64,000 bases of DNA from Candidatus Bathyarchaeia archaeon (GTDB lineage Archaea; Thermoproteota; Bathyarchaeia; Bathyarchaeales; Bathycorpusculaceae): assembly GCA_050010755.1 (NCBI GenBank), contig JBEKKK010000001.1, forward strand, positions 1,280,001-1,344,000, written 5' to 3'. Each line of letters opens with the position of its first letter. Position 1 is the stretch's first letter. This document shows positions 1,588 through 55,026 of the stretch, one piece after another. Under the pieces are notes generated by a model, which made no database searches, had not been told where the DNA came from, and saw only the letters and a program-made list of their open reading frames with translations. The position numbers and the translations under genes were made by a program.

Positions 1588-3621
1588 CTAGCTTTGGCTT
1601 GTTTTCACAGCTTTCTTTTTGTAGATTATGGCTGCTAGTAGTGTTAATAGCATGAAAAGCATCGTGGCTTGAATCCATGGAAACTCTGGAACCACTACTA
1701 TTGGAACCGTAAGCGGGTAATGGTCAGTATTGTGTGTGTCGATTACGTAAGGCGTGTTCCAGACGCCGTCTGTTTCGGTGGCGTTCGGATACTTTGTCAG
1801 ATAGTCGCTCCAGTAGTTGCCCAAGCCTCCACTATCCCAAATGTTAGTTGAGTTTGAAGAAGAAACTTGGCTGGTGTTGTTTATGAAGTTGTTATGGTAG
1901 ATTGTGTTGTTAGAAGAAGAATCGAGATAGATGCCATCATAGGTGTTTGCTGCTATGTTGTTCCCGTTCAGGTTGTTATTGGCAGAAGAATAGAGATACA
2001 TGCCATCAAAGTTGTTTGTTATGTTGTTTCCGCTTAATCTGTTATTAGAAGAAGAATCGAACAAGATGCCAACCCTGTTGCTTGTTAAGCTATTTCCGCT
2101 CACATTGTTGTTATTAGAAGAAGACTCGAGCACGATGCCAGTAGAGTTGCCTAATATGTTGTTTCCTGTTATGTTGTTCGCGTTCAGGCTGTTATTAGAA
2201 GAAGAATAGAGATAGATGCCATCATAGGTGTTTGCTGTTATGTTGTTTTCGCTAATGGTGTTGTTTGAAGTGTTCTCGAGGAAGGTGCCATATTGAAAGT
2301 TCTCTATGTTTGTGTTTTCGATTGTTATGTTGTTTCTGTTAGATAGGTCTATTCCGTTTCCAGTTCCATCTCCTTGAATCGTGAATCCAGCTCCGTTCAG
2401 AACGATATTGTCCCTCTGCACAACGATTGACTCAATGATGATGTTGGCTGTAAACGTGTAAGTGATATTGTCAACAGTCGTAATCGGTGCTGTTGACGGG
2501 CTTATGCTTCCGTCAGCATTGATGGTAATGGGTCCGCCCTCATATGGAACCCAAAGTTGCATGAGTGGATAATAGTCGGTATTGTTTGCGTCAATGACAT
2601 ATGAAGTGTTCCAGACGCCGAAGCCGTCAACTTTAGTGGCGTTCGGATACTTTGTCAGATAGTCGCTCCAGTAGTTGCCCAGGCCTCCACTATCCCAAAT
2701 GTTAGTTGAGTTTGAAGAAGAAACTTGGCTGGTGTTGTTTATGAAGTCATTATGGTAGATCATGTTGTCAGAGGATGAGTAGAGCTCAATGCCATTCCCG
2801 TTTTTTACAACGTTGTTGCCAGACAACGTGTCACCAGAGGCAGAGTAGAGCTTAATGCCATATCCGTTGTTTGCAACGTTGTTGCCAGACAAAGTGCAAT
2901 TATAAGAAGATTCGAGCAAAATGCCAATGTTGCTGTTTGCCGTGACGTTGTTGCCAAACAATGTGTTGTTAGAAGCAGAGCTGAGCACAATGCCATCATT
3001 ACTGCTTGCCGTAACGTTGTTGCCCGACAAAGTGTTGTTATCAGACGATTGTTGGAGCCAAATGCCATACCGGTTGTTTACGACAGTGTTGTCAGAAAAA
3101 GCGTTACCAGGGGAAGAGTCGAGCCAAATGCCATACGCGTTGTTTACGACGGTGTTGCCAGAAAAAGCATTATTAGAAGAAGATTGGAGTTGAATGCCTT
3201 GTCCGTTGTTTACGACGGTGTTGCCAGAAAAAGTGTTACCGGAAGAAGAGCCGAGCAAAATGCCCCAGGTAAAGTTCGTTAAAATCAGGTTTGTTACTGT
3301 CACGTTGCTTATGTTCGTCATGGTCGTTATTCCGCTCTCGTTTCCGCCTCCGGTCACAGTGTAGCCTGCCCCGTTTAAAACAATGTTGTCTCTTTCAATC
3401 ACAATTCCACCAGTATTGGCGGCGGTGATGTTGATGTTGCCAGTTAAAGTGTATGTGATATTGTCTGCTGTATAGATGGGAGCAGTTGACGGCGTTATGC
3501 TCCCGTCTGCATTTATGTAAATGGGTGCAACATCAGCCTTGACTATCTGAATCAACCCAGTTATTGACGATACGGAAAGCAAACACAGAATTATAATCGA
3601 AACAAAAACAACTCTGTTCAT
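1588..3621 (-). CDS. Secreted NosD/CASH-type parallel beta-helix surface protein, two tandem modules, PEF-CTERM-like tail
   Basis: Signal peptide, 22-aa GIxLxxSSxNxxxGNxxxxN coils, two GNYWSDY...DxYPL module ends, C-terminal VPEFP + TM helix + KKK. Confidence 0.9.
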   Translation of the reverse strand: MNRVVFVSIIILCLLSVSSITGLIQIVKADVAPIYINADGSITPSTAPIYTADNITYTLTGNINITAANTGGIVIERDNIVLNGAGYTVTGGGNESGITTMTNISNVTVTNLILTNFTWGILLGSSSGNTFSGNTVVNNGQGIQLQSSSNNAFSGNTVVNNAYGIWLDSSPGNAFSDNTVVNNRYGIWLQQSSDNNTLSGNNVTASSNDGIVLSSASNNTLFGNNVTANSNIGILLESSYNCTLSGNNVANNGYGIKLYSASGDTLSGNNVVKNGNGIELYSSSDNMIYHNDFINNTSQVSSSNSTNIWDSGGLGNYWSDYLTKYPNATKVDGFGVWNTSYVIDANNTDYYPLMQLWVPYEGGPITINADGSISPSTAPITTVDNITYTFTANIIIESIVVQRDNIVLNGAGFTIQGDGTGNGIDLSNRNNITIENTNIENFQYGTFLENTSNNTISENNITANTYDGIYLYSSSNNSLNANNITGNNILGNSTGIVLESSSNNNNVSGNSLTSNRVGILFDSSSNNRLSGNNITNNFDGMYLYSSANNNLNGNNIAANTYDGIYLDSSSNNTIYHNNFINNTSQVSSSNSTNIWDSGGLGNYWSDYLTKYPNATETDGVWNTPYVIDTHNTDHYPLTVPIVVVPEFPWIQATMLFMLLTLLAAIIYKKKAVKTSQS
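1778..1902. repeat. Near-identical intragenic repeat, copy 1 (copy 2 at 2636-2760)
   Basis: ~125 bp encoding YHNxFINNTSQVSSSNSTNIWDSGGLGNYWSDYLTKYPNAT; 3 mismatches by eye. Confidence 0.9.
2636..2760. repeat. Near-identical intragenic repeat, copy 2
   Basis: Direct comparison with 1778-1902. Confidence 0.9.
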
Positions 3622-3728
3622 CCGTTGTCACTTCCGCAAATAATTTATGGGATTGATTGAATCAGTTCTTATGGTTTGTGGAAGAATCCTCAGCGCGTGT
3701 GCAATGAGAATAGGGCACGACGACGCGT

Positions 3729-5057
3729 TCACATTTTCTGTTCTTCTAGAAGTCGAAAGTCGCCGCGACTTGCTTCTTTATCAATCACGATTCTTCCGTT
3801 CTTAATAACCTTGTCAACCAGGTTAACTCCGAATCGGTAGCCGAGAAACTTGTGGTTGGGCACGTCGAGGACGATGACATCAGCCTTCTTTCCCAATTCC
3901 AAGCTGCCGACCTCGTTTGCCCGGCTCACGGCGTGAGCGGCGTTAATCGTAGTTGCCGTAATAGCTTCGGCAGGCGTCATTTTCATACAGTGACAGGCGA
4001 GCCCTATGACCAGTTGCTGATTTTCAACCCAGCAGTTCGGGTTAAAATCCGTACCCAAAGCCACGGGGACTCCACAGTCAATCATTTTGCGGGCATCGGC
4101 GTACCGGTTGGTCATTAGGCTGAAAGCTGCCGCGGGCAGCAGAATCGCTGCCACGCCTTTTTCGGCCATCGCCTTGATGCCCTGATCGGAGGAGAAGAGC
4201 AGGTGATCTGCAGAAGCCGCTCCGATGTCTGCCGCGAGTTCTGCCCCGCCCAGGCGGCTCATCTCGTCCGCGTGAACCTTGGGCTTCAGGCCTGAGCTCT
4301 TGCCCGTGCTCAGGATGCGCCTGGTCTGTTCAAGGCCGAACACTCCTTTCTCGCAGAACACGTCACAGAACTCTGCCAGTCCCTTCTCTGCCACTTTGGG
4401 GATCATCTCCTCGGTGACCAGATTAACGTAGCCTTGCAGGTTGTTTTCGAATTCGGGGGGAACAGCATGGGCCCCGAGAAACGTTGGAACTATGTCCACG
4501 CTGTGCAGCTGATTCAACCGTTTGACAACTTCCAACATCTTGAGCTCATCTTTGGTCGTCAGACCGTAGCCGCTCTTGGCTTCAACAGTCGTCGTTCCGT
4601 GCTCCAACATCGCATCCAAGGTTTCGGTGCCATTTTCGACGAGTTTCTCGAAACTCGCCTTTCTGGTCTCTCTGACCGTTTTCAGAATGCCGCCGCCCGC
4701 CTCGAGGATTTCCATGTAAGAGGCACCCGTCATTCGCAATTGAAACTCGTCTTCCCGTGAACCGGCAAACACAAGATGGGTGTGAGGGTCAACGAAGCCG
4801 GGAAGAACGATTTTCCCGTTTACACTCACGACGTTTTCAGCCTTGTAAGTTTTCGTGATGTCCGCGGTTTTTCCCACAGCGACGATTCTTCCATCCTTGA
4901 CTGCCAAGCCTCCGTCGCGCACTATTCCAAGCTCCTGCATCTGCTTTCCAGTGCGCGGCTTCTGAGATTCGCTTGAAAGCGTGACAAGCTCATTCGCGTT
5001 TACGACGAGCAGGTCCAGTTTTTCCCGTGGCCTTGTCTTCACTGATCTTCTACTCAA
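3729..5057 (-). CDS. hutI: Imidazolonepropionase
   Basis: PGFVDPHTH, GGGILKTV, EAKSGYGL, FCDVFCE, KVHADE, ALGTDFNP motifs. Confidence 0.95.
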   Translation of the reverse strand: MSRRSVKTRPREKLDLLVVNANELVTLSSESQKPRTGKQMQELGIVRDGGLAVKDGRIVAVGKTADITKTYKAENVVSVNGKIVLPGFVDPHTHLVFAGSREDEFQLRMTGASYMEILEAGGGILKTVRETRKASFEKLVENGTETLDAMLEHGTTTVEAKSGYGLTTKDELKMLEVVKRLNQLHSVDIVPTFLGAHAVPPEFENNLQGYVNLVTEEMIPKVAEKGLAEFCDVFCEKGVFGLEQTRRILSTGKSSGLKPKVHADEMSRLGGAELAADIGAASADHLLFSSDQGIKAMAEKGVAAILLPAAAFSLMTNRYADARKMIDCGVPVALGTDFNPNCWVENQQLVIGLACHCMKMTPAEAITATTINAAHAVSRANEVGSLELGKKADVIVLDVPNHKFLGYRFGVNLVDKVIKNGRIVIDKEASRGDFRLLEEQKM

Positions 5058-5970
5058 ACGTACCGCCTTTTTCGATGGCCTCTTGAACGGCTATTTCTAG
5101 GACGCGCTGCTCGGTCAGGTTGTCAACCTTCAAGTAGTACCCCGCGGTGTCGATTAGGGCCTTTAGCGGGGCCATGCCGCAGAATTCCGAACCCAAGATC
5201 GACACGTTGTAACGCGCACACTCAACCTTGAGAACTTCGAATACACGGTACAGCGGAGTTCTTTCGAAATCGCTTATGCTCATCCCGATTTGCGTGATGT
5301 TCTTCTCCGGAAGGAAGGCGGCCATCGCCTTGACGTTTGAGAACCCGCCCTTACTAGCATGCAAGGCCCGAGCTATCTTCCTGGCAACCTTCAAGTCTGC
5401 CGTCCCAATGTTAACGTTGAAGCCCGCCATGACCCTGCGCGCACCCGTTATCGTGGCGCCCGCGGTTGGATGAGGCTTCGCTGGCCCGAAGTCCGGCCTT
5501 CGCTCGGGTTTCGCAATCATCTCCCCAAGTCTCTCATAGTCCCCATCACGAATCCAATCCAAATCTCTCCGCTCATGCTTCAAAGAAGCGATACCATAAA
5601 GGTACACGGGCACGTGGCACTTTTCTGCAAGACTCTGGCCGAACCTCTTCGAGAGTTCGATACAGTCGTCAATTGTGACGTTTTTCAACGGAACAAACGG
5701 GACAACGTCAATTGCGCCGATTCGGGGGTGCTGGCCCTTGTGCTTTTTCATGTCAATCAGTTCCACAGCTTTGAAAGCCATTTTCAGCGCAGCCGCAAGC
5801 ACAGACTCTTCGTCTCCAACGAAAGAAACCACAAGTCTGTTGTAATAATCATCAAAAGAACAGTCGAGCAAAAATGCGTTCCTAGTTTTCCTAAGCTCCC
5901 CAAGAATGCTCTCCACAACTTCAGGATCTGAAGTGCTGAAGTTCGGCACGCACTCAACTAGGCCCGCCAT
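5050..5970 (-). CDS. ftcd: Glutamate formimidoyltransferase (stand-alone FT domain)
   Basis: LVECVPNFS, HPRIGAIDVVPFVP, PDFGP, HPTAGAT motifs; overlaps hutI. Confidence 0.93.
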   Translation of the reverse strand: MAGLVECVPNFSTSDPEVVESILGELRKTRNAFLLDCSFDDYYNRLVVSFVGDEESVLAAALKMAFKAVELIDMKKHKGQHPRIGAIDVVPFVPLKNVTIDDCIELSKRFGQSLAEKCHVPVYLYGIASLKHERRDLDWIRDGDYERLGEMIAKPERRPDFGPAKPHPTAGATITGARRVMAGFNVNIGTADLKVARKIARALHASKGGFSNVKAMAAFLPEKNITQIGMSISDFERTPLYRVFEVLKVECARYNVSILGSEFCGMAPLKALIDTAGYYLKVDNLTEQRVLEIAVQEAIEKGGTFE

Positions 5971-6250
5971 TCTTCTCCCACTCAGCTTCTAAAAGCGACG
6001 CAAACAAATAAGTGTATTTCGGGAAAAATCCAGAACCGAGACACAGTAACAAAAGAACGGGCCTACCCGCTAACCTCCAATTAGCTTCTTCTGTTGCTGT
6101 GCTAATGATTTCTTGACTTTTCGTAAACTGAACCCGAGCGCGCGCGTCGCGTGAACCTCGCCCAAACAACGACTGGGAGGCTGACCGTACGAGTTGCAGG
6201 ATTCTCAGAAGATTACCGGGATACTGCGAGAAAGGCCATTGCAAGGGACG

Positions 6251-7312
6251 TCAGATTGCTTTGACAATCTTGTATCCGGAGGCTCTTCTCAGCCTATTCA
6301 TAACCGCCAATCCAAGTCCTTCGAGAGGCACGCCTTCAGCCACAATGACGTCAACTCCTTCCATATCAAACTCCCTCAGACTGGCAAACAAGCTCCGAGC
6401 AATACTGCCCAAGTCACTTCTGCTTCCAACACACTTCACAACGCCAGTCTTGTAAGAACCGGCGGTTTCAGCAGTGCACAAAACCCCCACCTTGCTCCCC
6501 CTCCTTACATAATATGCTACCAACTCGTTCACTTTCTTCACAAGGGCAGGCAACTCGCCCTCAACCACGACCACGCAAGCATCGGGTGCGTAATGCTTAT
6601 GCTTCAATCCAGGCGAACGAACCGGCCCAGCGGGCACAGGCTTTTCAGCCGACACCGCCGGATTAAGAACCACACAGCCCAGAACCTCCTTCAACGCCTC
6701 AAACGGCGTTCCACCGGGCCGCAAAACCTCAGGAGGATCCACCGTCAGGTCCAAAACAGTAGACTCGACACCCACCGCCGTCGGACCAGCATCCAAAACT
6801 GCGTCAATCCTCCCGTTCAAATCATCCAAAACGTGCCTTGCTAAAGTTGGACTCGGCCTTCCCGCTAGGTTGGCGCTGGGCGCAGAAACTGGACAACCGC
6901 TCTCCCGAATCAACGCCAAGGCAACCTCGTGCCTGGGCATCCTCACAGCAACCGTATCTAAGCCGGCAACGGTCACGTCAGGTAAGGCCCTCGACCGCTT
7001 CAAAACCAAAGTCAGCGGCCCAGGCCAGAACAATTTCATCAGCGCCTCTGCCTTCGGCGGAACCTCCCTGGCAACCCTGCGAACATCCTCAACACCGCAC
7101 ACATGTACGATAGGTGGGTTATCTAGCGGGCGCTTCTTTGCCTCGAAAAGTGCCAAAACGGCCGAACCGTTCAAAGCGTCTGCCCCTAGCCCGTACACGG
7201 TCTCCGTCGGAAAGGCTACTAAACCGCCACGTCTGATGAGCCTTGCCGCGACACGAACCTTCTCGATGTCAGGGGTCTCGGGGTCGACCTTCAACAGCAC
7301 CGTTTTCTTCAT
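6251..7312 (-). CDS. sua5: L-threonylcarbamoyladenylate synthase (Sua5/TsaC with SUA5 C-domain)
   Basis: VAFPTETVYGLG, KKRPLDNP, WPGPLT, APSANLAGRPSPT, SPGLKHKHYAP. Confidence 0.95.
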   Translation of the reverse strand: MKKTVLLKVDPETPDIEKVRVAARLIRRGGLVAFPTETVYGLGADALNGSAVLALFEAKKRPLDNPPIVHVCGVEDVRRVAREVPPKAEALMKLFWPGPLTLVLKRSRALPDVTVAGLDTVAVRMPRHEVALALIRESGCPVSAPSANLAGRPSPTLARHVLDDLNGRIDAVLDAGPTAVGVESTVLDLTVDPPEVLRPGGTPFEALKEVLGCVVLNPAVSAEKPVPAGPVRSPGLKHKHYAPDACVVVVEGELPALVKKVNELVAYYVRRGSKVGVLCTAETAGSYKTGVVKCVGSRSDLGSIARSLFASLREFDMEGVDVIVAEGVPLEGLGLAVMNRLRRASGYKIVKAI

Positions 7313-7382
7313 CGGAAACGGTAGAATCGCACCTCAGCTTTTAAACCTCGCCAACGGGGAACACGAAAAAAGAAGAGCAGGC

Positions 7383-7937
7383 CTAGACGACGTATCGATC
7401 CATAATCTTCTTTATGCCCTTCGGCGGAGCCTGTTTTGCGGCTAGTTGCTTCAGTATCGACATGACCTGCGGCTGAAAACGAGCGATATCCGTCAAACTC
7501 ACCAGGCCTACGAGACGCTTCCCATCAACCACCGGTAACTTCTTGATTTTCATCTGAAACATCAACTTCACAGCCTCTCCCAAATCCATACTCGGCTCTG
7601 CCACGACAAGCGGGCTCGTCATCACATCCTTAACCTTCGTCTTCTTGGCATCCTTCGCACCCGCAACAATCCGCTTCAAGACATCCCTCTCCGTGAGAAT
7701 ACCCATAGCCTTTCCCTTCTTCACCGCGATCAAACAGCCAATCTCGAACTTGTTCATAACATCAACGGCCTCCTTAACCGTCACGCCATCATCAATCGTG
7801 ACGACTTCCTTCACCATCACGTCCTCAACTTTCAGGGAAATCTCGCCTTCCTTCTCTTCGGCTTCATCTTTAGGCAATGCAATCACCAACCCTTTATGAC
7901 ATGCCGATTTGAGTATATAAAACTCTGCAGCGTCCAC
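7383..7937 (-). CDS. CBS-pair domain protein (start may be TTG at 7877)
   Basis: Two CBS repeats (VEDVM...GILTERDV; VKDVMT...LPVVD...GLVSLTDI). Confidence 0.85.
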   Translation of the reverse strand: MDAAEFYILKSACHKGLVIALPKDEAEEKEGEISLKVEDVMVKEVVTIDDGVTVKEAVDVMNKFEIGCLIAVKKGKAMGILTERDVLKRIVAGAKDAKKTKVKDVMTSPLVVAEPSMDLGEAVKLMFQMKIKKLPVVDGKRLVGLVSLTDIARFQPQVMSILKQLAAKQAPPKGIKKIMDRYVV

Positions 7938-45554: not shown

Positions 45555-45680
45555 GGGGTTTGCCGGTCATAGGGCGTGGGTCCCACCTGATCCCATACCG
45601 AACTCAGAAGTTAAACCACGTTCCGTTTCCGGTTATAGTGTGGTCTTCGGCCATGTGAACCCGGGAAAGCTGGTAGCCCC
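45555..45680 (+). rRNA. rrf: 5S rRNA (stand-alone)
   Basis: GGTCATAG...CACCTGATCCCATACCGAACTCAGAAGTTAA; terminal helix GGGGTT/AGCCCC. Confidence 0.93.
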
Positions 45681-50088: not shown

Positions 50089-50273
50089 ATTTCACGCCTA
50101 CCACGGTTCCCTATACATTTCAAAGAAAAGTATTAAGTCTTGTGCGACATGCGCTCATGCCTTTCAAATGAGGCACGGTGTGAATTGTACGCGTTCCAGA
50201 GTCAGGCTTTTATTAAAATATGAGCATTTACATTACAAAATCCAATCTATCTGGCTCAAAGGTGCGGAACAGC

Positions 50274-51785
50274 ATGGTTGACTTGAGAGAACACGAACGT
50301 CGGACGCTTTCAGCGTTGAGCAACTTCATTGGGGAGGCGAACGTTGAGCAACTCATTCAGAATAGCGGACTGTCGGATGCGGCTGTGATGCGTGCCGCCT
50401 TGGCACTGCAGGAAAAAGGACTTATAACGATTCATGAATGCAGAGAGACGTTGCTGAAGCTCAGCGCAGAGGGAAAGCTTCACGCTAATAAGGGCCTGCC
50501 GGAACGGCGTCTCATGAACGCTTTAGAGAACCTCGGCGGGAAAGCTGCTCGCAAGGATGCCTTTGAAAAGGCAGGTTTGGAAAAGCAATTCATGCCAATC
50601 GCGCTGGGGTGGGCTCAGAAGAAAAAATGGACGATGCTCGACTCGAAAGCTGACGTGTTGCAGGCTATCGTTAAACCGGCAGTGGGTGACGATGAGAGGC
50701 TGCTCAAGGTTCTTGCTGAAAAGGAAAACGTGACGGCGGAAGAGTTAGATGCTAAGCTTCAAGGTGCTGTGCAGGTTCTTAAAGGAAGGAAGCTTCTCGA
50801 CGTCGAGGGAAAGATACGGCGCGTTTTTGAATTGACGGCAGCCGGAAAGCAAGGCTTGAGGGAAAGAAAGAGTGAGGCTCCTGAAGTGACACAGTTGACG
50901 CAGGAGCTTATCGTCGGCGGCAAATGGAAGAGTGTGAAGCTTCAAAGATACAACGTGGAGGCATCGGTGGCTGAGACATGGCCCGGCAAGAAGCATCCCT
51001 ACACACAATTCTTGGAAGAAGTGAGAGAAAAGCTTGTTACCCTGGGATTCAGAGAAATGATCGGCACGGCAGTTGAAACGTCCTTCTTTAACTTCGACGC
51101 CCTCTACACGCCCCAGGACCATCCGGCCCGAGAAGCATCAGGCATTTACTTCGTCAAATCGCCAAAAGAAGGAAGCATAGACGTTCCCGCGAAAATCCTT
51201 GACAACGTGAGAAAGACTCATGAAAACGGCTGGAAAACAGGCTCCACAGGCTGGAAATACAAGTACTCGGAGAAAGAAGCCAAACGACTCATTCTGCGAG
51301 GACACGGAACATGCCTCAGTGCTAGAACGTTGCTGAGCAAAGACCTGCAGGTTCCGGGTAGATACTTCTCGTTTGCGCGATGCTACAGACCGGAAATAGT
51401 TGACAAGCTGCACCTGACAGAGTTCAATCAGGTTGAAGGCATAATCATTGAAAAGGATTTGACGTTGCGAGATCTGCTGGGTGTGCTGGGAAAATTTGCC
51501 ACCGAAATCGCGGGGGCAGACAAGGTTAGGTTCAGGCCGGACTACTTTCCCTTCACGGAACCGAGCGTTGAACTTGCCGCGTACAAGAAAGGTGTCGGAT
51601 GGATAGAGTTCGGCGGCTCAGGAATTTTCAGACCCGAAGTTACAATGCCCATGGGCATCAAGGAGCCAGTTATCGCTTGGGGTTTAGGCATCGACCGATT
51701 GTTCATGATGAGGGCCAAGGTCGAGGAGATACGATACATTTTCAGCCAAGACCTAGACTGGGTCAGAAGGAAGGCGGTGGTCTAG
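50274..51785 (+). CDS. pheS: Phenylalanyl-tRNA synthetase alpha subunit
   Basis: GLPERR, FNFDALYTPQDHPARE, HLTEFNQVEG, YFPFTEPS, GIFRPE, AWGLGIDR; ATG 50274 preferred. Confidence 0.96.
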   Translation: MVDLREHERRTLSALSNFIGEANVEQLIQNSGLSDAAVMRAALALQEKGLITIHECRETLLKLSAEGKLHANKGLPERRLMNALENLGGKAARKDAFEKAGLEKQFMPIALGWAQKKKWTMLDSKADVLQAIVKPAVGDDERLLKVLAEKENVTAEELDAKLQGAVQVLKGRKLLDVEGKIRRVFELTAAGKQGLRERKSEAPEVTQLTQELIVGGKWKSVKLQRYNVEASVAETWPGKKHPYTQFLEEVREKLVTLGFREMIGTAVETSFFNFDALYTPQDHPAREASGIYFVKSPKEGSIDVPAKILDNVRKTHENGWKTGSTGWKYKYSEKEAKRLILRGHGTCLSARTLLSKDLQVPGRYFSFARCYRPEIVDKLHLTEFNQVEGIIIEKDLTLRDLLGVLGKFATEIAGADKVRFRPDYFPFTEPSVELAAYKKGVGWIEFGGSGIFRPEVTMPMGIKEPVIAWGLGIDRLFMMRAKVEEIRYIFSQDLDWVRRKAVV

Positions 51786-53483
51786 ATGCCGACGATAGAC
51801 ATAGACTATGCCGAGTTCGAAAGGCTGCTCGGAAAAATGCTGCACAAAGACTTGGATGAGATCAACGATGCGCTTGCATTTGTCAAGGGAGAGGCGAACC
51901 TGTTCGATGAGAAAGAAGGAACTATGAGCGTTGAGATAAAGGATACAAATCGTCCGGACATCTGGAACATCGAGGGCCTAGTCAGAGCTCTGCGAGGGTT
52001 TCTGGGCATCGAAGAGGGTTTGAAGCGATATTCAGTTGGCAAGCAGTCAGCCGAGGTTCACGTTGATCAGGGACTGGAAAACATACGTCCCTACATCGGC
52101 TGCTCCATAGTCAAGAATCTGAAACTGAATGACACCATAATCCGCGGCTTCATGCACATGCAGGACAAGCTCGATCAGACTTACGGAAGGAACAGGCGGC
52201 GAACTTCAATCGGGCTTTACAACTTGGATTTAATTAAACTGCCGTTGCAGTATACGGTCGCAAAGCCGAATGAAATCAGCTTCGCGCCGCTGGGCTTCAC
52301 GGAAAAGATGAGCCTGAAAGAAATGCTTGCGCATCATCCGAAAGGCCTAGAGTACGGCCACATCGTCAGCAAACACGAGGTCTACCCCCTCCTCTTGGAC
52401 GCGGAGAACAAGCCTCTCTCCTTCCCTCCGATAATCAACTCTAACGACCTTGGAAGAATCACCGAAGATACAAAAAACGTTCTCGTCGAAGTTACAGGAA
52501 CAATGGAAGAGACAACGCTCAACACTCTGAAAATCGTCACCCTCTCCTTGATAGACCGTGGCGGCAAAGCTTACGCAGCCAAAATCCACTATCCGCACAG
52601 AAACTTGGACGTTCTGACACCAAGCTTCGAAACCGGCCAAATGGACTTGAACGTTGATTACGCCAACACTGTCTTGGGCTTGAAGCTGAAGGCCAAGCAG
52701 ATTGCACAGATGCTGCGCAAGGCAGGCCACGGCGCTGAAGAAACTGAGGGGAATAGTGTGCACGTGGAGATTCCGTGTTACAGAGTCGACGTGATGCATC
52801 CTGTAGATCTCGTCGAAGACGTTGCCATAGCCTACGATTACAACAACATCAAGCCGCTGTGGCGCGAAATGCCCACGACCGGAGGGGTGAGGCCTGAACA
52901 GAGATTGATTGGCGTGGCGAGAGAGTTGATGATTGGACTGGGGTTTCAGGAAGTCCTCACGTTCACACTTACGAACCCTGACACCCTCTTCAAGAAAATG
53001 AACCTCAAGAAAGAGAAGATAATTGAAATCTCCAACCCCAAAGTCAACACATTGACATGCCTGAGAAGCTGGTTGCTGCCCAACCTCATCGAATTTGTGA
53101 GCAACAACCTGCACGTTGAATGCCCGCAGAAAATATTCGAACTCGGCAAAGTCACCCTCCTCGATGAGAAGAGAGAAACTAGAAGCAGGGACGAAGACAG
53201 AGTTGCCGCAATCATCTACGACGCAAACGCCAGCTTCACAGAAGCCAAATCAACAGTCGAAGCTTTCATGGCGAACCTAGGGCTCAAATGGCAAATAAAA
53301 GAAACGGAACATCCCAGCTTCATAAGCGGCAGAGCAGGCGAGATAATCGTCGAAGGAACGGAAGTTGGAGTCTTGGGCGAAATCAACCCGAAAGTCCTCG
53401 AAGCATGGAAACTGGAAAACCCCACGGCAGCCTTCGAACTGGACGTTGAAAAGATAATCAAAATCAAACAAAAAAACAAGTGA
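51786..53483 (+). CDS. pheT: Phenylalanyl-tRNA synthetase beta subunit
   Basis: MPTI, NRPD, PPIINS, YRVDVMHPVDLVEDVAIAY, GEINP. Confidence 0.96.
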   Translation: MPTIDIDYAEFERLLGKMLHKDLDEINDALAFVKGEANLFDEKEGTMSVEIKDTNRPDIWNIEGLVRALRGFLGIEEGLKRYSVGKQSAEVHVDQGLENIRPYIGCSIVKNLKLNDTIIRGFMHMQDKLDQTYGRNRRRTSIGLYNLDLIKLPLQYTVAKPNEISFAPLGFTEKMSLKEMLAHHPKGLEYGHIVSKHEVYPLLLDAENKPLSFPPIINSNDLGRITEDTKNVLVEVTGTMEETTLNTLKIVTLSLIDRGGKAYAAKIHYPHRNLDVLTPSFETGQMDLNVDYANTVLGLKLKAKQIAQMLRKAGHGAEETEGNSVHVEIPCYRVDVMHPVDLVEDVAIAYDYNNIKPLWREMPTTGGVRPEQRLIGVARELMIGLGFQEVLTFTLTNPDTLFKKMNLKKEKIIEISNPKVNTLTCLRSWLLPNLIEFVSNNLHVECPQKIFELGKVTLLDEKRETRSRDEDRVAAIIYDANASFTEAKSTVEAFMANLGLKWQIKETEHPSFISGRAGEIIVEGTEVGVLGEINPKVLEAWKLENPTAAFELDVEKIIKIKQKNK

Positions 53484-53637
53484 AATCGCCGCAGCCAATC
53501 GAACATATTCCGTATGGGCTATGACATCATCGAAACGGCTACTCATCTATGAGTTTTGCAGGGCTCGACATTCAACATGTTTGGACAAGTGGAGTGGGAG
53601 ACAGCAACCCTTAACTTTTCAGCCGCTCCTTCTCTTC

Positions 53638-53878
53638 TGGCGATGACAGGAATTTGAGCCCTAGATAATCCCGCTGGCATATCCACGCAGACGGACTCAA
53701 CGGAAGAAGCAAGCTTCGCTTGCCGGTTCTTGTGATGGCGAGTTTACCCAAACGTGGGACACGGCGGGCGCGGGCCTAAAAAGCCTACGACGGAGAGAGC
53801 TTAACCTAGAGGAGCGTACCGCCCCACAGTGAAGTTAAGTGTTTGGTTACGTAGGGAACAAGATGGCCCGCGAAAACA
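53638..53878 (+). ncRNA. Candidate structured RNA: two K-turn/ACA hairpins plus a 5' C/D-like segment
   Basis: Nested stems identified by eye (see finding); TATA-like CCTTAACTT ~25-30 nt upstream; no ORF. Confidence 0.55.
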
Positions 53879-53937
53879 ACTCTTAAGTTTGTCATGTGTA
53901 TACAGATAGGTAAAACCCGAAGCAGGCAGAGCAAAAT

Positions 53938-55026
53938 TTGGACTTAGAAACGAAAATCGAGCTTGTGTGCAGACCGCCGACGGAAGAAGTCATAACTCCT
54001 GAAGACTTGCGGAAACTCTTGGAGGTTGAGGAGCATCCGATAGCCTACAACGGCTGGGAACCGTCCGGTCTGGTTCACCTTGGAACAGGCGTCGTCTGCG
54101 CCTACAAGATGAAAGACTTCCTAGATGCTGGAATACGGTACAAGGCCTATCTTTCAACGTGGCATGCTTGGCTAAACAACAAGATGGGCGGCGACCTAAA
54201 ACTCATAAGAAAAGCCGCGGATCTCTTCAGACACTCATGGATAGCCCTGGGCGTTCCAGAAGACAAGGTCGAATTCATCTACTCGGACGAGCTTTACGAC
54301 GATTTGAAATACTGGGAAAAAACGGTGATGGTGTCGAAAAACCTCTCAATAGCGAGGGTGACACGCACGCTCGAGGTTGCAGGAAGACAGGAGTCTGAGG
54401 CCAAACACGTTTCGGACTACCTGTACACGCCCATGCAAGTAGCCGACATATTCCACATGGAAGTAAAAATTTGTCAACTAGGCATGGATCAACGCAAAGC
54501 AAACGTCGTGGCCAGAGAACTTGGCGAAAGGCTCGGGTTCTGGAAACCCGTGTGCGTGCACCACAGCTACCTCCAAGGCCTAGCGAAGCCGCCCATTTGG
54601 CCTATTCCGAAAGAGAAAGAAAGGGAAATACTCTCATCGATAAAAATGTCGAAGAGCAAGCCTGAAACCTGCATATTCATATACGACTCGCCCGAAGAAA
54701 TCAAACAGAAAATTTCACACGCCTTCTGCCCAGAAAAAACCGTGGAGTACAATCCAATCTTGGAGATATGCAAGTTCATAATATTCAGAGAAAACAAGGC
54801 CTTCACCATACAAAGACCGCCCAAATTTGGAGGGCCAATAGCTTTCGAAAACCTCAAGGAGCTCCAAAATGCGTACGCGGAAGGTAAACTTCATCCGCAG
54901 GACCTCAAGAACGCTGTGGCAGAAGAGCTCGCACGGATGCTTGAACCCGTGAGAAGATACTTCGAAAACAACAAAGAAGCAAGAGAATGCCTCAACGCGG
55001 TTAGCAACTCCAAAGTGACAAGGTGA
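53938..55026 (+). CDS. tyrS: Tyrosyl-tRNA synthetase
   Basis: AYNGWEPSG, HLG, YTPMQVADI, GMDQRK, KMSKS, LHPQDLK. Confidence 0.96.
   Translation: MDLETKIELVCRPPTEEVITPEDLRKLLEVEEHPIAYNGWEPSGLVHLGTGVVCAYKMKDFLDAGIRYKAYLSTWHAWLNNKMGGDLKLIRKAADLFRHSWIALGVPEDKVEFIYSDELYDDLKYWEKTVMVSKNLSIARVTRTLEVAGRQESEAKHVSDYLYTPMQVADIFHMEVKICQLGMDQRKANVVARELGERLGFWKPVCVHHSYLQGLAKPPIWPIPKEKEREILSSIKMSKSKPETCIFIYDSPEEIKQKISHAFCPEKTVEYNPILEICKFIIFRENKAFTIQRPPKFGGPIAFENLKELQNAYAEGKLHPQDLKNAVAEELARMLEPVRRYFENNKEARECLNAVSNSKVTR

Follow-up and report, generated by a model that had tools for sequence, protein, structure and literature searches.

A double-hairpin RNA between archaeal pheT and tyrS genes is a probable box H/ACA guide for two sites in 23S rRNA

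RESULTS

Gene order and architecture of the RNA

The region between pheT and tyrS was examined in a 64-kb stretch of archaeal DNA, the whole of which is referred to as the window. A small non-coding RNA is located here on the + strand (53639-53873) and consists of a 5' K-loop followed by two hairpins of the box H/ACA type. A preliminary description of the window had placed a structured RNA between these genes, and every element listed in that description was present at its place. A TATA-like element (TTAACTTTT, + strand, 53611-53619) lies ~20 nt upstream of the GGCGAUGA motif and, as judged from its sequence, is likely to be the archaeal promoter element of this RNA; CTTAACTTTTCA is likewise present in related loci L001-L004, L006 and L008. 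The K-loop (+ strand, 53639-53660) has the form of a C/D-like K-turn, GGC-GAU-GA-loop-GA-GCC with CAGGAAUUU as the loop, and presumably provides an extra L7Ae site in the leader.

The structure of each hairpin (all elements on the + strand) was compared with that of 26 aligned relatives. Hairpin 1 is closed by an outer stem, CCCGCUG/CGGCGGG (53670-76/53762-68), for which 100% of the cells of the alignment pair and 2/7 pairs change on both sides. Its lower stem P1, (U)CCACG/CGUGG(G) (53682-87/53753-58), and upper stem P2, GGACUC/GAGUUU (53693-98/53740-45), have 5/6 and 3/6 compensatory pairs, respectively, and P2 has at its base two G.U pairs that never vary in the 26 sequences. The pocket between these stems is formed by a 5' guide strand PS1, CAGACGG (53688-53694), whose GACGG is invariant, and a 3' guide strand PS2, UUACCCAAA (53744-53752), whose UACCCA is invariant in 26/26 sequences. 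Above the pocket is a C/D-like K-turn, CGGA-AGAA...UUCU-UGU-GAUGG (CGGA, 53701-04; UGU bulge and GAUGG, 53731-38), with C-N-GA and GUGAUG motifs that are kept in the relatives, and an apical hairpin, GCAAGC-UUC-GCUUGC (within 53693-53745), of variable length. The K-turns or K-loops of archaeal H/ACA RNAs contain tandem G.A pairs and are expected ~9-10 nt from the pocket; here the K-turn lies 12 nt away when measured from the base of P2 as predicted, and 10 nt away should the two G.U pairs be counted as part of the pocket. The ACA box (53759-61) is in an internal loop in place of the usual tail or hinge, and the GACAC that contains it is invariant (26/26).

Hairpin 2 repeats this plan. The outer stem CGCGGGCC/GGCCCGCG (53769-76/53865-72) has 4/8 compensatory pairs and is followed by a conserved A (53873), the last base before a back-joint to 53670 that is described below. 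P1 is CCUACG/CGUAGG (53784-89/53850-55), with 4/5 counted pairs compensatory, and P2, likewise supported by compensatory changes, is CUUAAC/GUUAAG (53800-05/53834-39), with an apical stem GGAGCG/CGCCCC within 53800-53839. PS1, ACGGAGAGAG (53790-53799), contains a GAGAGAG that is nearly invariant in the alignment and is kept across phylum-level matches; PS2 is UGUUUGGUUA (53840-53849). A K-turn-like motif is formed by UAGA (53807-10) and GUGAAG (53829-34), with AG (53808-09) and UGA (53830-32) invariant, and has a bulge of 5 nt as compared to the usual 3 and a distance of 11-12 nt from the pocket. The CUAGA that had been considered as a possible D-like box turned out to be the non-bulged strand of this motif, as opposed to a D box of a methylation guide. 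The ACA box (53858-60) is two nt past P1, again within an internal loop, and is invariant (26/26). The outer stems of the two hairpins abut with zero linker: GGG directly followed by CGYGGG was present in all 26 aligned sequences (L021 with one extra G), and the same abutment occurs in 24/24 further loci with the same hairpin order (L047, L048 and L050-L071).

Scans against Rfam were performed for the entire window and for the locus. At gathering thresholds the 64-kb window produced a 5S rRNA as its sole match, leaving the pheT-tyrS RNA unmatched, whilst a scan of 53400-54000 at E <= 10 returned just two chance-level matches (i.e. GP20-b and astro_FSE) and none to an H/ACA family. The RNA, earlier described as unrecognised, was without a match to any Rfam family at both levels of stringency, other than the two chance-level ones.

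Comparative support for the structure

Folding of the single sequence reproduced both hairpins, with an energy that was unremarkable as compared to shuffled sequences (z = -0.44 for the + strand and -0.99 for the - strand); on the one sequence of the window alone, the structure is not beyond chance. DNA matches to the RNA at E <= 1.5e-7 were obtained in 27/40 relatives. RNAalifold predicted the same helices from the 26-sequence alignment, and a structure of 42 pairs in 7 helices was paired in 97.2% of cells with 22/42 pairs changing on both sides. No column shuffle out of 500 equalled these values, and slid controls paired in 34-46% of cells. The outer stems of both hairpins covary (e.g. column pair 66/187 is GC in 13, AU in 9 and GU in 4 sequences), in agreement with the proposal that the ACA boxes are enclosed. 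As read from these alignments, the comparative evidence settles the reality of the structure, and the two parallel domains of H/ACA type, each with a pocket, a K-turn or K-turn-like motif and an ACA, are conserved in the 26 relatives.

Two further interactions were considered. The 3' pocket strands are complementary to each other at 8/9 positions in the window, as previously reported, yet this complementarity is neither kept nor compensated in relatives, which have UUAGG, AUAGG or UUAGU opposite the invariant ACCCA; kissing of the two pockets was rejected. Energies for a helix between leader and trailer were inside the range of shuffled sequences in most relatives and somewhat better within the window's own genus (-12 to -14 versus -7 to -9 kcal/mol).

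Complementarity of the pockets to 23S rRNA

Searches for LSU and SSU rRNA in the window's own genome found none assembled, and targets were therefore tested on the rRNAs of relatives. The two sites described here are numbered as in E. coli, with positions that we take to be 2578-2580 and U1915/U1917; the 23S sequences carrying them are GAGCUGGGUUUAGACCGUCGUGAG and GGGAGUAACUCUGACUCUCUCAAGG. Hairpin 1 pairs on both sides of a UUU at ~2578-2580, with the ACCCA of PS2 complementary to UGGGU and the GACGG of PS1 complementary to CCGUC, giving 5+5 bp, or 6+6 bp in genome G040. From U53745 to G53758 is 14 nt, so that with U53745 opposite the second U of the UUU the third would be at n+15. The partner of hairpin 2 is helix 69, where the GGUUAC of PS2 (or its GUUA) pairs with GUAAC(U) and the GAGAGAG of PS1 with the CUCUCUC of the 3' strand, giving 6+7 bp. 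A register in which GUUA pairs with UAAC is also available in most relatives; in one large subgroup PS2 is GAUAGG, the GUUA/UAAC register is broken and the GGUUAC register alone holds. Pairing of hairpin 2 leaves U1915-C-U1917-G(-A) unpaired at about 16-20 nt from the ACA. The proposed pairings leave 4-5 target nucleotides unpaired as compared to two in a canonical pocket, where the unpaired U is ~15 nt from the ACA.

An unbiased two-part scan of 16S and 23S rRNA was performed with each genome's own guide for G012 and G040. For hairpin 2, helix 69 ranked first in both genomes, and in G040 the pairing was extended (UUUGAGAGAG with cucucuuaag). For hairpin 1, the 2580-region ranked first in G040 and second in G012. 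Both 23S sites ranked second when the window's own guides were tested against the rRNAs of G012: the site for hairpin 1 was outscored by 16S 1389-1409 (as it was with the G012 guide) and helix 69 by 16S 551-570. The top scores were reached by 1, 24, 27 and 6 of 200 shuffled guides, controls which are singly weak. A strict canonical 'UN' scan (contiguous pairs with exactly two unpaired nucleotides) found no convincing site common to G012 and G040 and did not rank the 2580-region or helix 69 sites, and the noise in a looser scan for co-located 5-mers was too high for it to be informative.

Both sites read as targets are very conserved. The helix 69 target GGGAGUAACUCUGACUCUCU(C/U) was present in 17/19 23S rows and UGGGUUUAGACCGUCGUGAGACAG, the other target, in 14/19, and this invariance, where seen, agrees with that of the guide strands. 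The scans cover 16S and 23S rRNA, and targets among tRNAs (e.g. U35 of tRNA-Tyr) are conceivable in addition.

The window's own genome encodes the proteins of an H/ACA particle, namely Cbf5 (428 bits), Nop10 (77 bits), Gar1 (35.5 bits) and L7Ae (103 bits), all above the curated cut-offs. From the combination of structure, pairing and protein genes we infer, with high confidence, that the RNA is a two-hairpin box H/ACA guide for pseudouridines at these two 23S sites. Hairpin 1 bound by Cbf5-Nop10-Gar1-L7Ae would convert the third U of the UUU (the equivalent of Haloferax volcanii 2605), and hairpin 2 with the same proteins would convert U1915 and/or U1917.

The non-canonical form of the pairings, with 4-5 unpaired target nucleotides, is also what might be seen if this H/ACA-type particle were a chaperone of pre-rRNA folding or processing, or had other targets such as 16S helix 44. 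Eukaryotic snR30/U17 is an H/ACA chaperone that binds pre-rRNA. The 16S sequence uuugggugag[GCGUG]gucu is complementary to the conserved UUUACCCAAA strand over its whole length and scores above the 23S site with the G012 and window guides, a score equalled by 1/200 shuffled guides; in G040, however, the part of this match that involves the 5' guide strand is lost. Moreover, both 23S sites are proven targets of H. volcanii sR-h45 with the same order of hairpins, and the pocket described for helix 69 in that RNA is also atypical (PMC7075261). A chaperone function or a 16S target in place of the two 23S sites is accordingly considered improbable.

Distribution, genomic context and presence in RNA libraries

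With a model built on hairpin 2, one full-length copy was detected in 132/151 genomes of the class and also in 29/131 genomes from other classes of the phylum. A tyrS-like ORF adjoined the RNA in 40/61 loci and pheT in 34/61. At 13 loci pheT was present without tyrS within ~1.4 kb downstream, and 8 loci had neither gene. The hairpins were also observed on integrative elements at a distance from pheT and tyrS.

Assembled metatranscriptome contigs were examined for presence of the RNA. Contigs from four runs (four studies) cover only 53647-53880 of the locus, with a summed word depth that reaches 1808 and 7564 as compared to 0 upstream and 5.45 downstream. Coverage of the RNA, which the preliminary description had named as a check, was hence observed in all four runs, in contigs from relatives that are 85-99% alike and so show neither the RNA ends nor the strand. 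Each of the four runs contained no more than a small share of the sampled words, and the runs name no habitat for the organism.

These observations bear on a possible role in cis, in which the RNA would be a leader controlling tyrS downstream of it or the pheST operon upstream of it (e.g. by binding L7Ae at its K-turns). Leaders controlled by L7Ae are known in archaea, and the synteny with both genes is strong. Against this role are the loci that lack tyrS or both genes, the hairpins on integrative elements, a TATA-like box read from the sequence between the RNA and tyrS, the depth of the contigs over the RNA (30-200 each, versus 5.45 for the single contig that extends into tyrS) and the match of invariant pocket strands to rRNA. 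Regulation in cis is very unlikely to be the function of this RNA.

The 5' K-loop

The motif GC[AGU]A[UC]GA-N(2-32)-GAGC of the K-loop was found in 18/26 aligned relatives, or 19/26 with the trimmed L015, and precedes hairpin 1 in a further class as well (L079, L080 and L086). Its boxes, GCGAUGA and (U/C)GAGC, form a K-turn in the same 19/26 relatives. The preliminary description had tentatively linked GGAAUUUGAG, at the 5' end, to a C/D-type guide for methylation of tRNA C56. This stretch is the loop of the K-loop, which among relatives is free to vary both in sequence and in length (from about 3 to 20 nt); between the boxes, the 26 relatives have no conserved antisense element and no C'/D' boxes. 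The genome also encodes Trm56 (148 bits), a protein enzyme whose presence argues against RNA-guided formation of Cm56. A composite in which the 5' GAUGA...GGAAUUUGAGCC is a C56 guide fused to mutually pairing H/ACA pockets draws on the C-box-like GCGAUGA and D-like UGAG of the K-turn and on the 8/9 complementarity of the pockets, but is largely refuted, and the least probable of the explanations, since the unconserved inter-box stretch cannot be a guide, C'/D' boxes are lacking, Trm56 is encoded and the pockets of relatives are less complementary to each other, with no changes that compensate.

A joint between the 3' and 5' ends of the two hairpins

One of the RNA-library contigs joins 53873 to 53670. 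This contig is 137 nt in length with a depth of 40.9 and 48 nt on the shorter side of the joint; it is a single contig from a relative in one run, as distinct from a count of junction reads. No tandem copy that could mimic the joint was seen, as nearly every genome has a single match to hairpin 2. The joint hints at a 204-nt circular dumbbell. A bulge-helix-bulge motif was absent by inspection, the CCGC after 53670 having no partner after 53874 (AAAC). RtcB is present in the window's own genome, whilst a gene for a Pab1020-type ligase was not found in this genome (93% complete).

A possible sequence of events would begin with a precursor carrying the K-loop, from which a mature circle (53670-53873) would be cut. 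The two outer stems would stack into one rod of ~15 bp, and the strand that joins hairpin 1 to hairpin 2 would act as a splint holding the 3' end beside the 5' end for ligation. The resulting dumbbell would have one H/ACA unit at each end, with each ACA in an internal loop, and an RNA that has no ends would carry two Cbf5 particles locked back to back. The gene itself would be an attachment site for integrase-bearing elements that bring their own replacement copy. This combination of a closed circle, a dumbbell of stacked stems and a gene that serves as attachment site is put forward tentatively, and we regard it as rather doubtful when taken as a whole. The literature searched, in which the H/ACA term itself matched nothing, contained no description of a double H/ACA RNA in the form of a circular dumbbell.

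DISCUSSION

The RNA described here most likely belongs to a known kind (i.e. a double box H/ACA guide) with an unusual packaging that is possibly circular. The closest comparison is with sR-h45 of H. volcanii, whose SL1 guides Psi2605 and SL2 guides Psi1940/1942 (PMC7075261). Both RNAs have two H/ACA stem-loops for the same target sites in the same 5'-3' order, with a K-turn or, in hairpin 2, a K-turn-like motif in each stem-loop and an ANA or ACA after each lower stem (PMC7075261). The 5' stem-loop of sR-h45 is directed to the UUU between helices 90 and 93 at n+15 and the 3' one to helix 69, where over two target nucleotides stay unpaired and the ACA is further away; the same is predicted for hairpins 1 and 2, respectively (PMC7075261). 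In the helix 69 stem-loop of sR-h45, UNUN is reported to be unpaired, at distances from the ACA of 17 and 19 as compared to 15 in its other stem-loop, and the departures of hairpin 2 from a canonical pocket resemble those of SL2 (PMC7075261). Shared targets and hairpin order also speak against the new RNA class offered in the preliminary description.

Several features distinguish the two RNAs. The stem-loops of sR-h45 are separated by a 56-nt linker that contains an H box (AUAGCU), whereas the hairpins of the pheT-tyrS RNA have zero linker; each ACA of the latter, unlike those of sR-h45, is in an internal loop closed by a covarying outer stem, and a 5' K-loop precedes hairpin 1 (PMC7075261). 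In place of the two A's with which sR-h45 pairs to the first two U's of the target, the pheT-tyrS RNA has one A followed by U's (PMC7075261).

Pf7 of Pyrococcus, Pab40 and Afu-4 are likewise described as multi-hairpin H/ACA sRNAs with adjacent hairpins, one of which guides the conserved pseudouridine of helix 69 (PMC2584109, PMC2377435). Grosjean et al. 2008 stated that stems II and III of Pf7 are homologous to the haloarchaeal hairpins, and that in Thermococcales these two hairpins lie next to each other (PMC2584109). Pf7 and Afu-4 have three hairpins as compared to two in the pheT-tyrS RNA, and the passages describing Pf7, Pab40 and Afu-4 contain neither outer closing stems nor a 5' K-loop (PMC2584109, PMC2377435). 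None of the Rfam families, including any that cover these RNAs, matched the pheT-tyrS RNA at E <= 10. Target sites and hairpin order suggest that the RNA is the counterpart, in its class, of sR-h45 and of the Pf7/Afu-4 lineage; common descent with these RNAs, beside which it is set by description, would be a plausible extension of this likeness. Atypical H/ACA or H/ACA-like RNAs of Sulfolobus and Pyrobaculum, from the same phylum-level lineage, also depart from the textbook hairpin and work with Cbf5, whereas the RNA reported here adds an extra stem (PMC11077068).

Among archaeal small RNAs, C/D box sRNAs are documented as circles, as is one form of the H/ACA RNA sR109 of Sulfolobus solfataricus, and circularisation in Thermococcus is described as requiring terminal stems, by which the ends are brought close (PMC3326292, PMC9014305). 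In the pheT-tyrS RNA the abutting outer stems would similarly keep the two ends side by side, as at a nick in a duplex; in contrast to the circular archaeal sRNAs, the joint was observed in a single contig and no gene for a Pab1020-type ligase was found.

A literature search for box H/ACA together with Bathyarchaeia or related taxon names found no publication, a search limited by the slash in the term. The family is missing from Rfam and can be added to annotation. The most conserved modifications of rRNA include the pseudouridines of helix 69 and those beside the peptidyl-transferase centre, and a probable guide for both has now been identified in a large, mostly uncultured archaeal class. 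Use as an integration site is usual behaviour for tRNA genes; integration at the gene for this RNA by elements carrying a spare copy speaks for an importance of the RNA to the cell. The variant architecture is relevant to the structural freedom that Cbf5 tolerates around the ACA box, to whether archaeal double H/ACA particles have a fixed geometry, as eukaryotic ones do, and to whether circularisation reaches multi-hairpin H/ACA RNAs. If true, the dumbbell would be a prokaryotic parallel to the obligate two-hairpin H/ACA snoRNP of eukaryotes.

A conserved two-hairpin RNA between pheT and tyrS

The RNA (53639-53873, + strand) lies in a 454-bp gap between an ORF ending at 53483 and another starting at 53938. 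Pfam assigns the neighbours as pheS-like (50220-51785), pheT (51786-53483; B5 and beta-chain domains) and a class I Trp/Tyr synthetase (53938-55026). All stems and motifs of the preliminary description were located at the coordinates given there, and both hairpins also appear when the + strand is folded for minimum energy. Fold energy showed no extra stability over shuffled sequence (z = -0.44 on the + strand, -0.99 on the - strand), so a single sequence is by itself no proof. A 261-nt stretch matched in 27 of 40 relatives (E <= 1.5e-7), of the same genus, family and order, with identities from 93% to ~70%; flanking non-coding DNA keeps far less. Alignment A1 comprised 26 full copies. L011 and L014, in which the gene is split, were excluded, as were L025, truncated at a contig end, and L030, which matched by chance. 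From A1, RNAalifold recovered the seven helices proposed. A 42-pair structure was paired in 97.2% of cells, with changes on both sides in 22 pairs; none of 500 shuffles equalled the observed pairing and covariation, and sliding partners by 1-3 columns lowered pairing to 34-46%. Conservation and covariation, the checks suggested at the outset, were thus both found, and the RNA is real and conserved. The pocket strands (GACGG, UACCCA, GAGAGAG and a portion of UGUUAGGUUAC) were invariant, as were the two ACA triplets and the G/A residues of the K-turns. The pairing proposed between the two pockets showed no covariation in relatives and is not retained.

Among 61 loci, 21 had both pheT and tyrS as neighbours, 19 tyrS only, 13 pheT only and 8 neither, counted within 1.5-kb flanks and with some genomes entered twice; this synteny is common, not obligatory. 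A trailer, AACAACU(C/U)UUAAGU (53874-53890), is kept in many relatives with a downstream tyrS. This stretch probably provides the tyrS BRE/TATA, and the small RNA may also end at its U-run. The leader (GAUGACA, GAAUUUGAG; 53640-53660) can pair with the trailer region (UGUCAU, CUUAAGUUU; 53880-53900), at -12 to -14 kcal/mol in the genus of the window vs -7 to -9 for shuffles; the pairing is lost in other genera.

Predicted targets in 23S rRNA

No Rfam family matched the RNA, either in a gathering scan of the whole window or in a scan of 53400-54000 at E <= 10. Because the genome has no assembled 16S or 23S rRNA, targets were sought in the rRNAs of two relatives, G012 from the same family and G040 from the same order. 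No site was common to both when the H/ACA search was strict and required exactly two unpaired target nucleotides. The search was relaxed to 2-6 unpaired nucleotides, using each genome's own guide strands. The top site for hairpin 2 was then helix 69 in both genomes (guaacu[CUGA]cucucuc), and the pairing of the G040 guide UUUGAGAGAG extends with cucucuuaag. For hairpin 1, a domain V site (cugggu[UUAGA]ccgucg) ranked first in G040 and second in G012. Guides of the window itself placed both 23S sites second on the G012 rRNAs. Between 1 and 27 of 200 shuffled guides matched the top score, so that the scores are not striking singly.

Weight is given to the assignment by its coincidence with published sites. 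According to one report (PMC7075261), the double stem-loop RNA sR-h45 of Haloferax volcanii uses its 5' stem-loop to form Psi2605, the last U of a UUU that lies between helices 90 and 93. In the same report its 3' stem-loop accounts for Psi1940 and Psi1942, both in helix 69, with UNUN unpaired in the pocket and ACA distances of 17 and 19, not 15. The RNA described here resembles sR-h45, as there reported, in both predicted target sites and in hairpin order. Grosjean et al. regard the hairpins of haloarchaea as homologous to stems II and III of Pf7 from Pyrococcus, and note that the two hairpins are adjacent in Thermococcales (PMC2584109). In hairpin 1 the third U would lie at n+15 (U53745 to G53758, 14 nt), and the spacing in hairpin 2 is longer and atypical (~16-20). 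The helix 69 target was conserved in 17 of 19 23S rows and the domain V motif was found in 14, its pattern being unmatched in the other five; the invariance of the guide strands fits, since the target sequences are invariant wherever readable. Genes for Cbf5, Nop10, Gar1 and L7Ae are present in the genome. The RNA is thus very probably a two-hairpin box H/ACA pseudouridine guide, with predicted targets in 23S rRNA at helix 69 and in the 2580 region.

The conserved 3' pocket strand of hairpin 1 pairs along its full length with a 16S site in G012 (L037, 1389-1409; uuugggugag[GCGUG]gucu(uu)). This site outranks the 23S site with both the G012 and window guides, and G040 lacks the portion that matches the 5' strand; the site represents either a second target or a chance match. 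A role in guiding tRNA Cm56, also proposed at first, is neither indicated nor needed, as the supposed T-arm antisense (GGAAUUUGAGCC), i.e. the variable loop and 3' half of a K-loop, is not conserved in relatives and a check for trm56 found Trm56 encoded in the genome.

Several features of the rRNA and protein genes were also recorded. In two loci (L103, G100:C3; L110, G215:C1), which match the 23S query from position 51 on only, the sequence just 5' of AAGGTAGCC is unrelated at the place expected for the helix 69 3' strand, and may be an rRNA intron beside the guide's target. The Cbf5 match (428 bits; G000:C7:1226-2200, - strand, L043) holds one in-frame TAA, which could be an intron, a frameshift or an assembly error; an intron in crenarchaeal cbf5 has been reported (PMC3326292). 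A 5S rRNA gene stands alone in the window (45559-45678, + strand; Rfam, 67.9 bits), and the 16S and 23S genes are hundreds of kb apart in G012 and G040.

A structural variant of a probable H/ACA guide

Box H/ACA guides are already known, and what is new in this probable member is its structure; the RNA is absent from Rfam. A further stem of 7-8 bp closes each hairpin and thereby places each ACA in an internal loop. This enclosure, noted in the preliminary description as an oddity, is real, because both outer stems covary. Between the outer stems there is no linker (GGG|CGCGGG): they abut in the 26 copies of the alignment, with an additional G in L021, and likewise in 24 of 24 other loci of the same order (L047, L048, L050-L071); linkers are present in more distant members of the class. 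Of 26 relatives, 19 have a C/D-like K-loop (GGC-GAU-GA-loop-GA-GCC) 5' of hairpin 1, whose loop is free to vary; the motif is also present in one family belonging to a different class (L079, L080, L086). At the base of the hairpin 1 upper stem, three pairs (two G.U, one A-U) lack supporting covariation. The G.U pairs are essentially invariant, and both G's are required for the predicted pairing with 23S CCGUC; counting these two pairs as pocket shortens the K-turn distance from 12 to 10 nt, the usual value. In distant relatives an additional short hairpin separates the outer and lower stems of hairpin 1 (A1 columns 70-97; L017, L019, L022-L029; e.g. CCUC-UAAC-GAGG), making the internal loop a three-way junction.

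Distribution and use as an attachment site

R1, a covariance model of hairpin 2, gave full-length matches in 132 of 151 sampled genomes of the class, including 86 of 95 high-quality ones, with one match per genome except in G121, which had two. In other classes of the phylum, 29 of 131 genomes matched, mostly from a small number of families (13/15, 8/8, 3/3, 2/2); no match was seen in several others (0/19, 0/13, 0/13). Two relatives have the gene interrupted within hairpin 1 (L041, G013:C84, 244-5282; L042, G021:C2, locus coordinates 1650-7790). The inserts are 4.8-6 kb long and flanked by the direct repeat CGGGTTTACCCAA, and a tyrosine recombinase gene adjoins the 5' half (Phage_integrase, 71 and 55 bits). 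Within each insert lies a separate, divergent copy of the two hairpins that lacks the 5' K-loop (R1, 85.5 and 83.2 bits). Together, the split gene, recombinase and additional copy indicate that the guide RNA gene is used for attachment in the way that tRNA genes are, with the element supplying a spare.

Expression and a possible circular form

Metatranscriptome coverage, another suggested check, was found in four runs from four studies, as contigs only. Contigs were placed on 53460-54060 at >= 85% likeness; they derive from relatives and close kin, and give neither strand nor ends. Contigs were confined to 53647-53880, with summed word depths of up to 1808 (run X2) and 7564 (run X3), and the small RNA is probably abundant. 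None of the four runs had a contig in 53460-53627, and downstream there was one 733-nt contig (depth 5.45); the fall in coverage at either edge can be taken only as a hint, as the flanks are less conserved and the contigs come partly from relatives.

One X2 contig (137 nt, depth 40.9, shorter side 48 nt) joins 53873, the base after the hairpin 2 outer stem, directly to 53670, the first base of the hairpin 1 outer stem. No tandem copy able to explain this joint was present in the genomes scanned with R1. A template switch by reverse transcriptase at the abutting ends would give the same junction, and the case for a circle rests on a single contig. Also against a circle, no Pab1020-type ligase was found in the 93%-complete genome and, although RtcB is encoded, no bulge-helix-bulge motif was seen on inspection. 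Precedents are described for a circular form of the H/ACA RNA sR109 in Sulfolobus (PMC3326292) and for ligase-dependent circularisation of C/D sRNAs with terminal stems (PMC9014305), and both hairpins are retained in the predicted circular fold. A circular mature RNA is put forward tentatively, as the less probable form. In it, both ends would meet at a nick within a stacked duplex, held there by the strand between the hairpins, and joining them would give a dumbbell capped on each side by an H/ACA unit. If true, the circle would make sense of the architecture.
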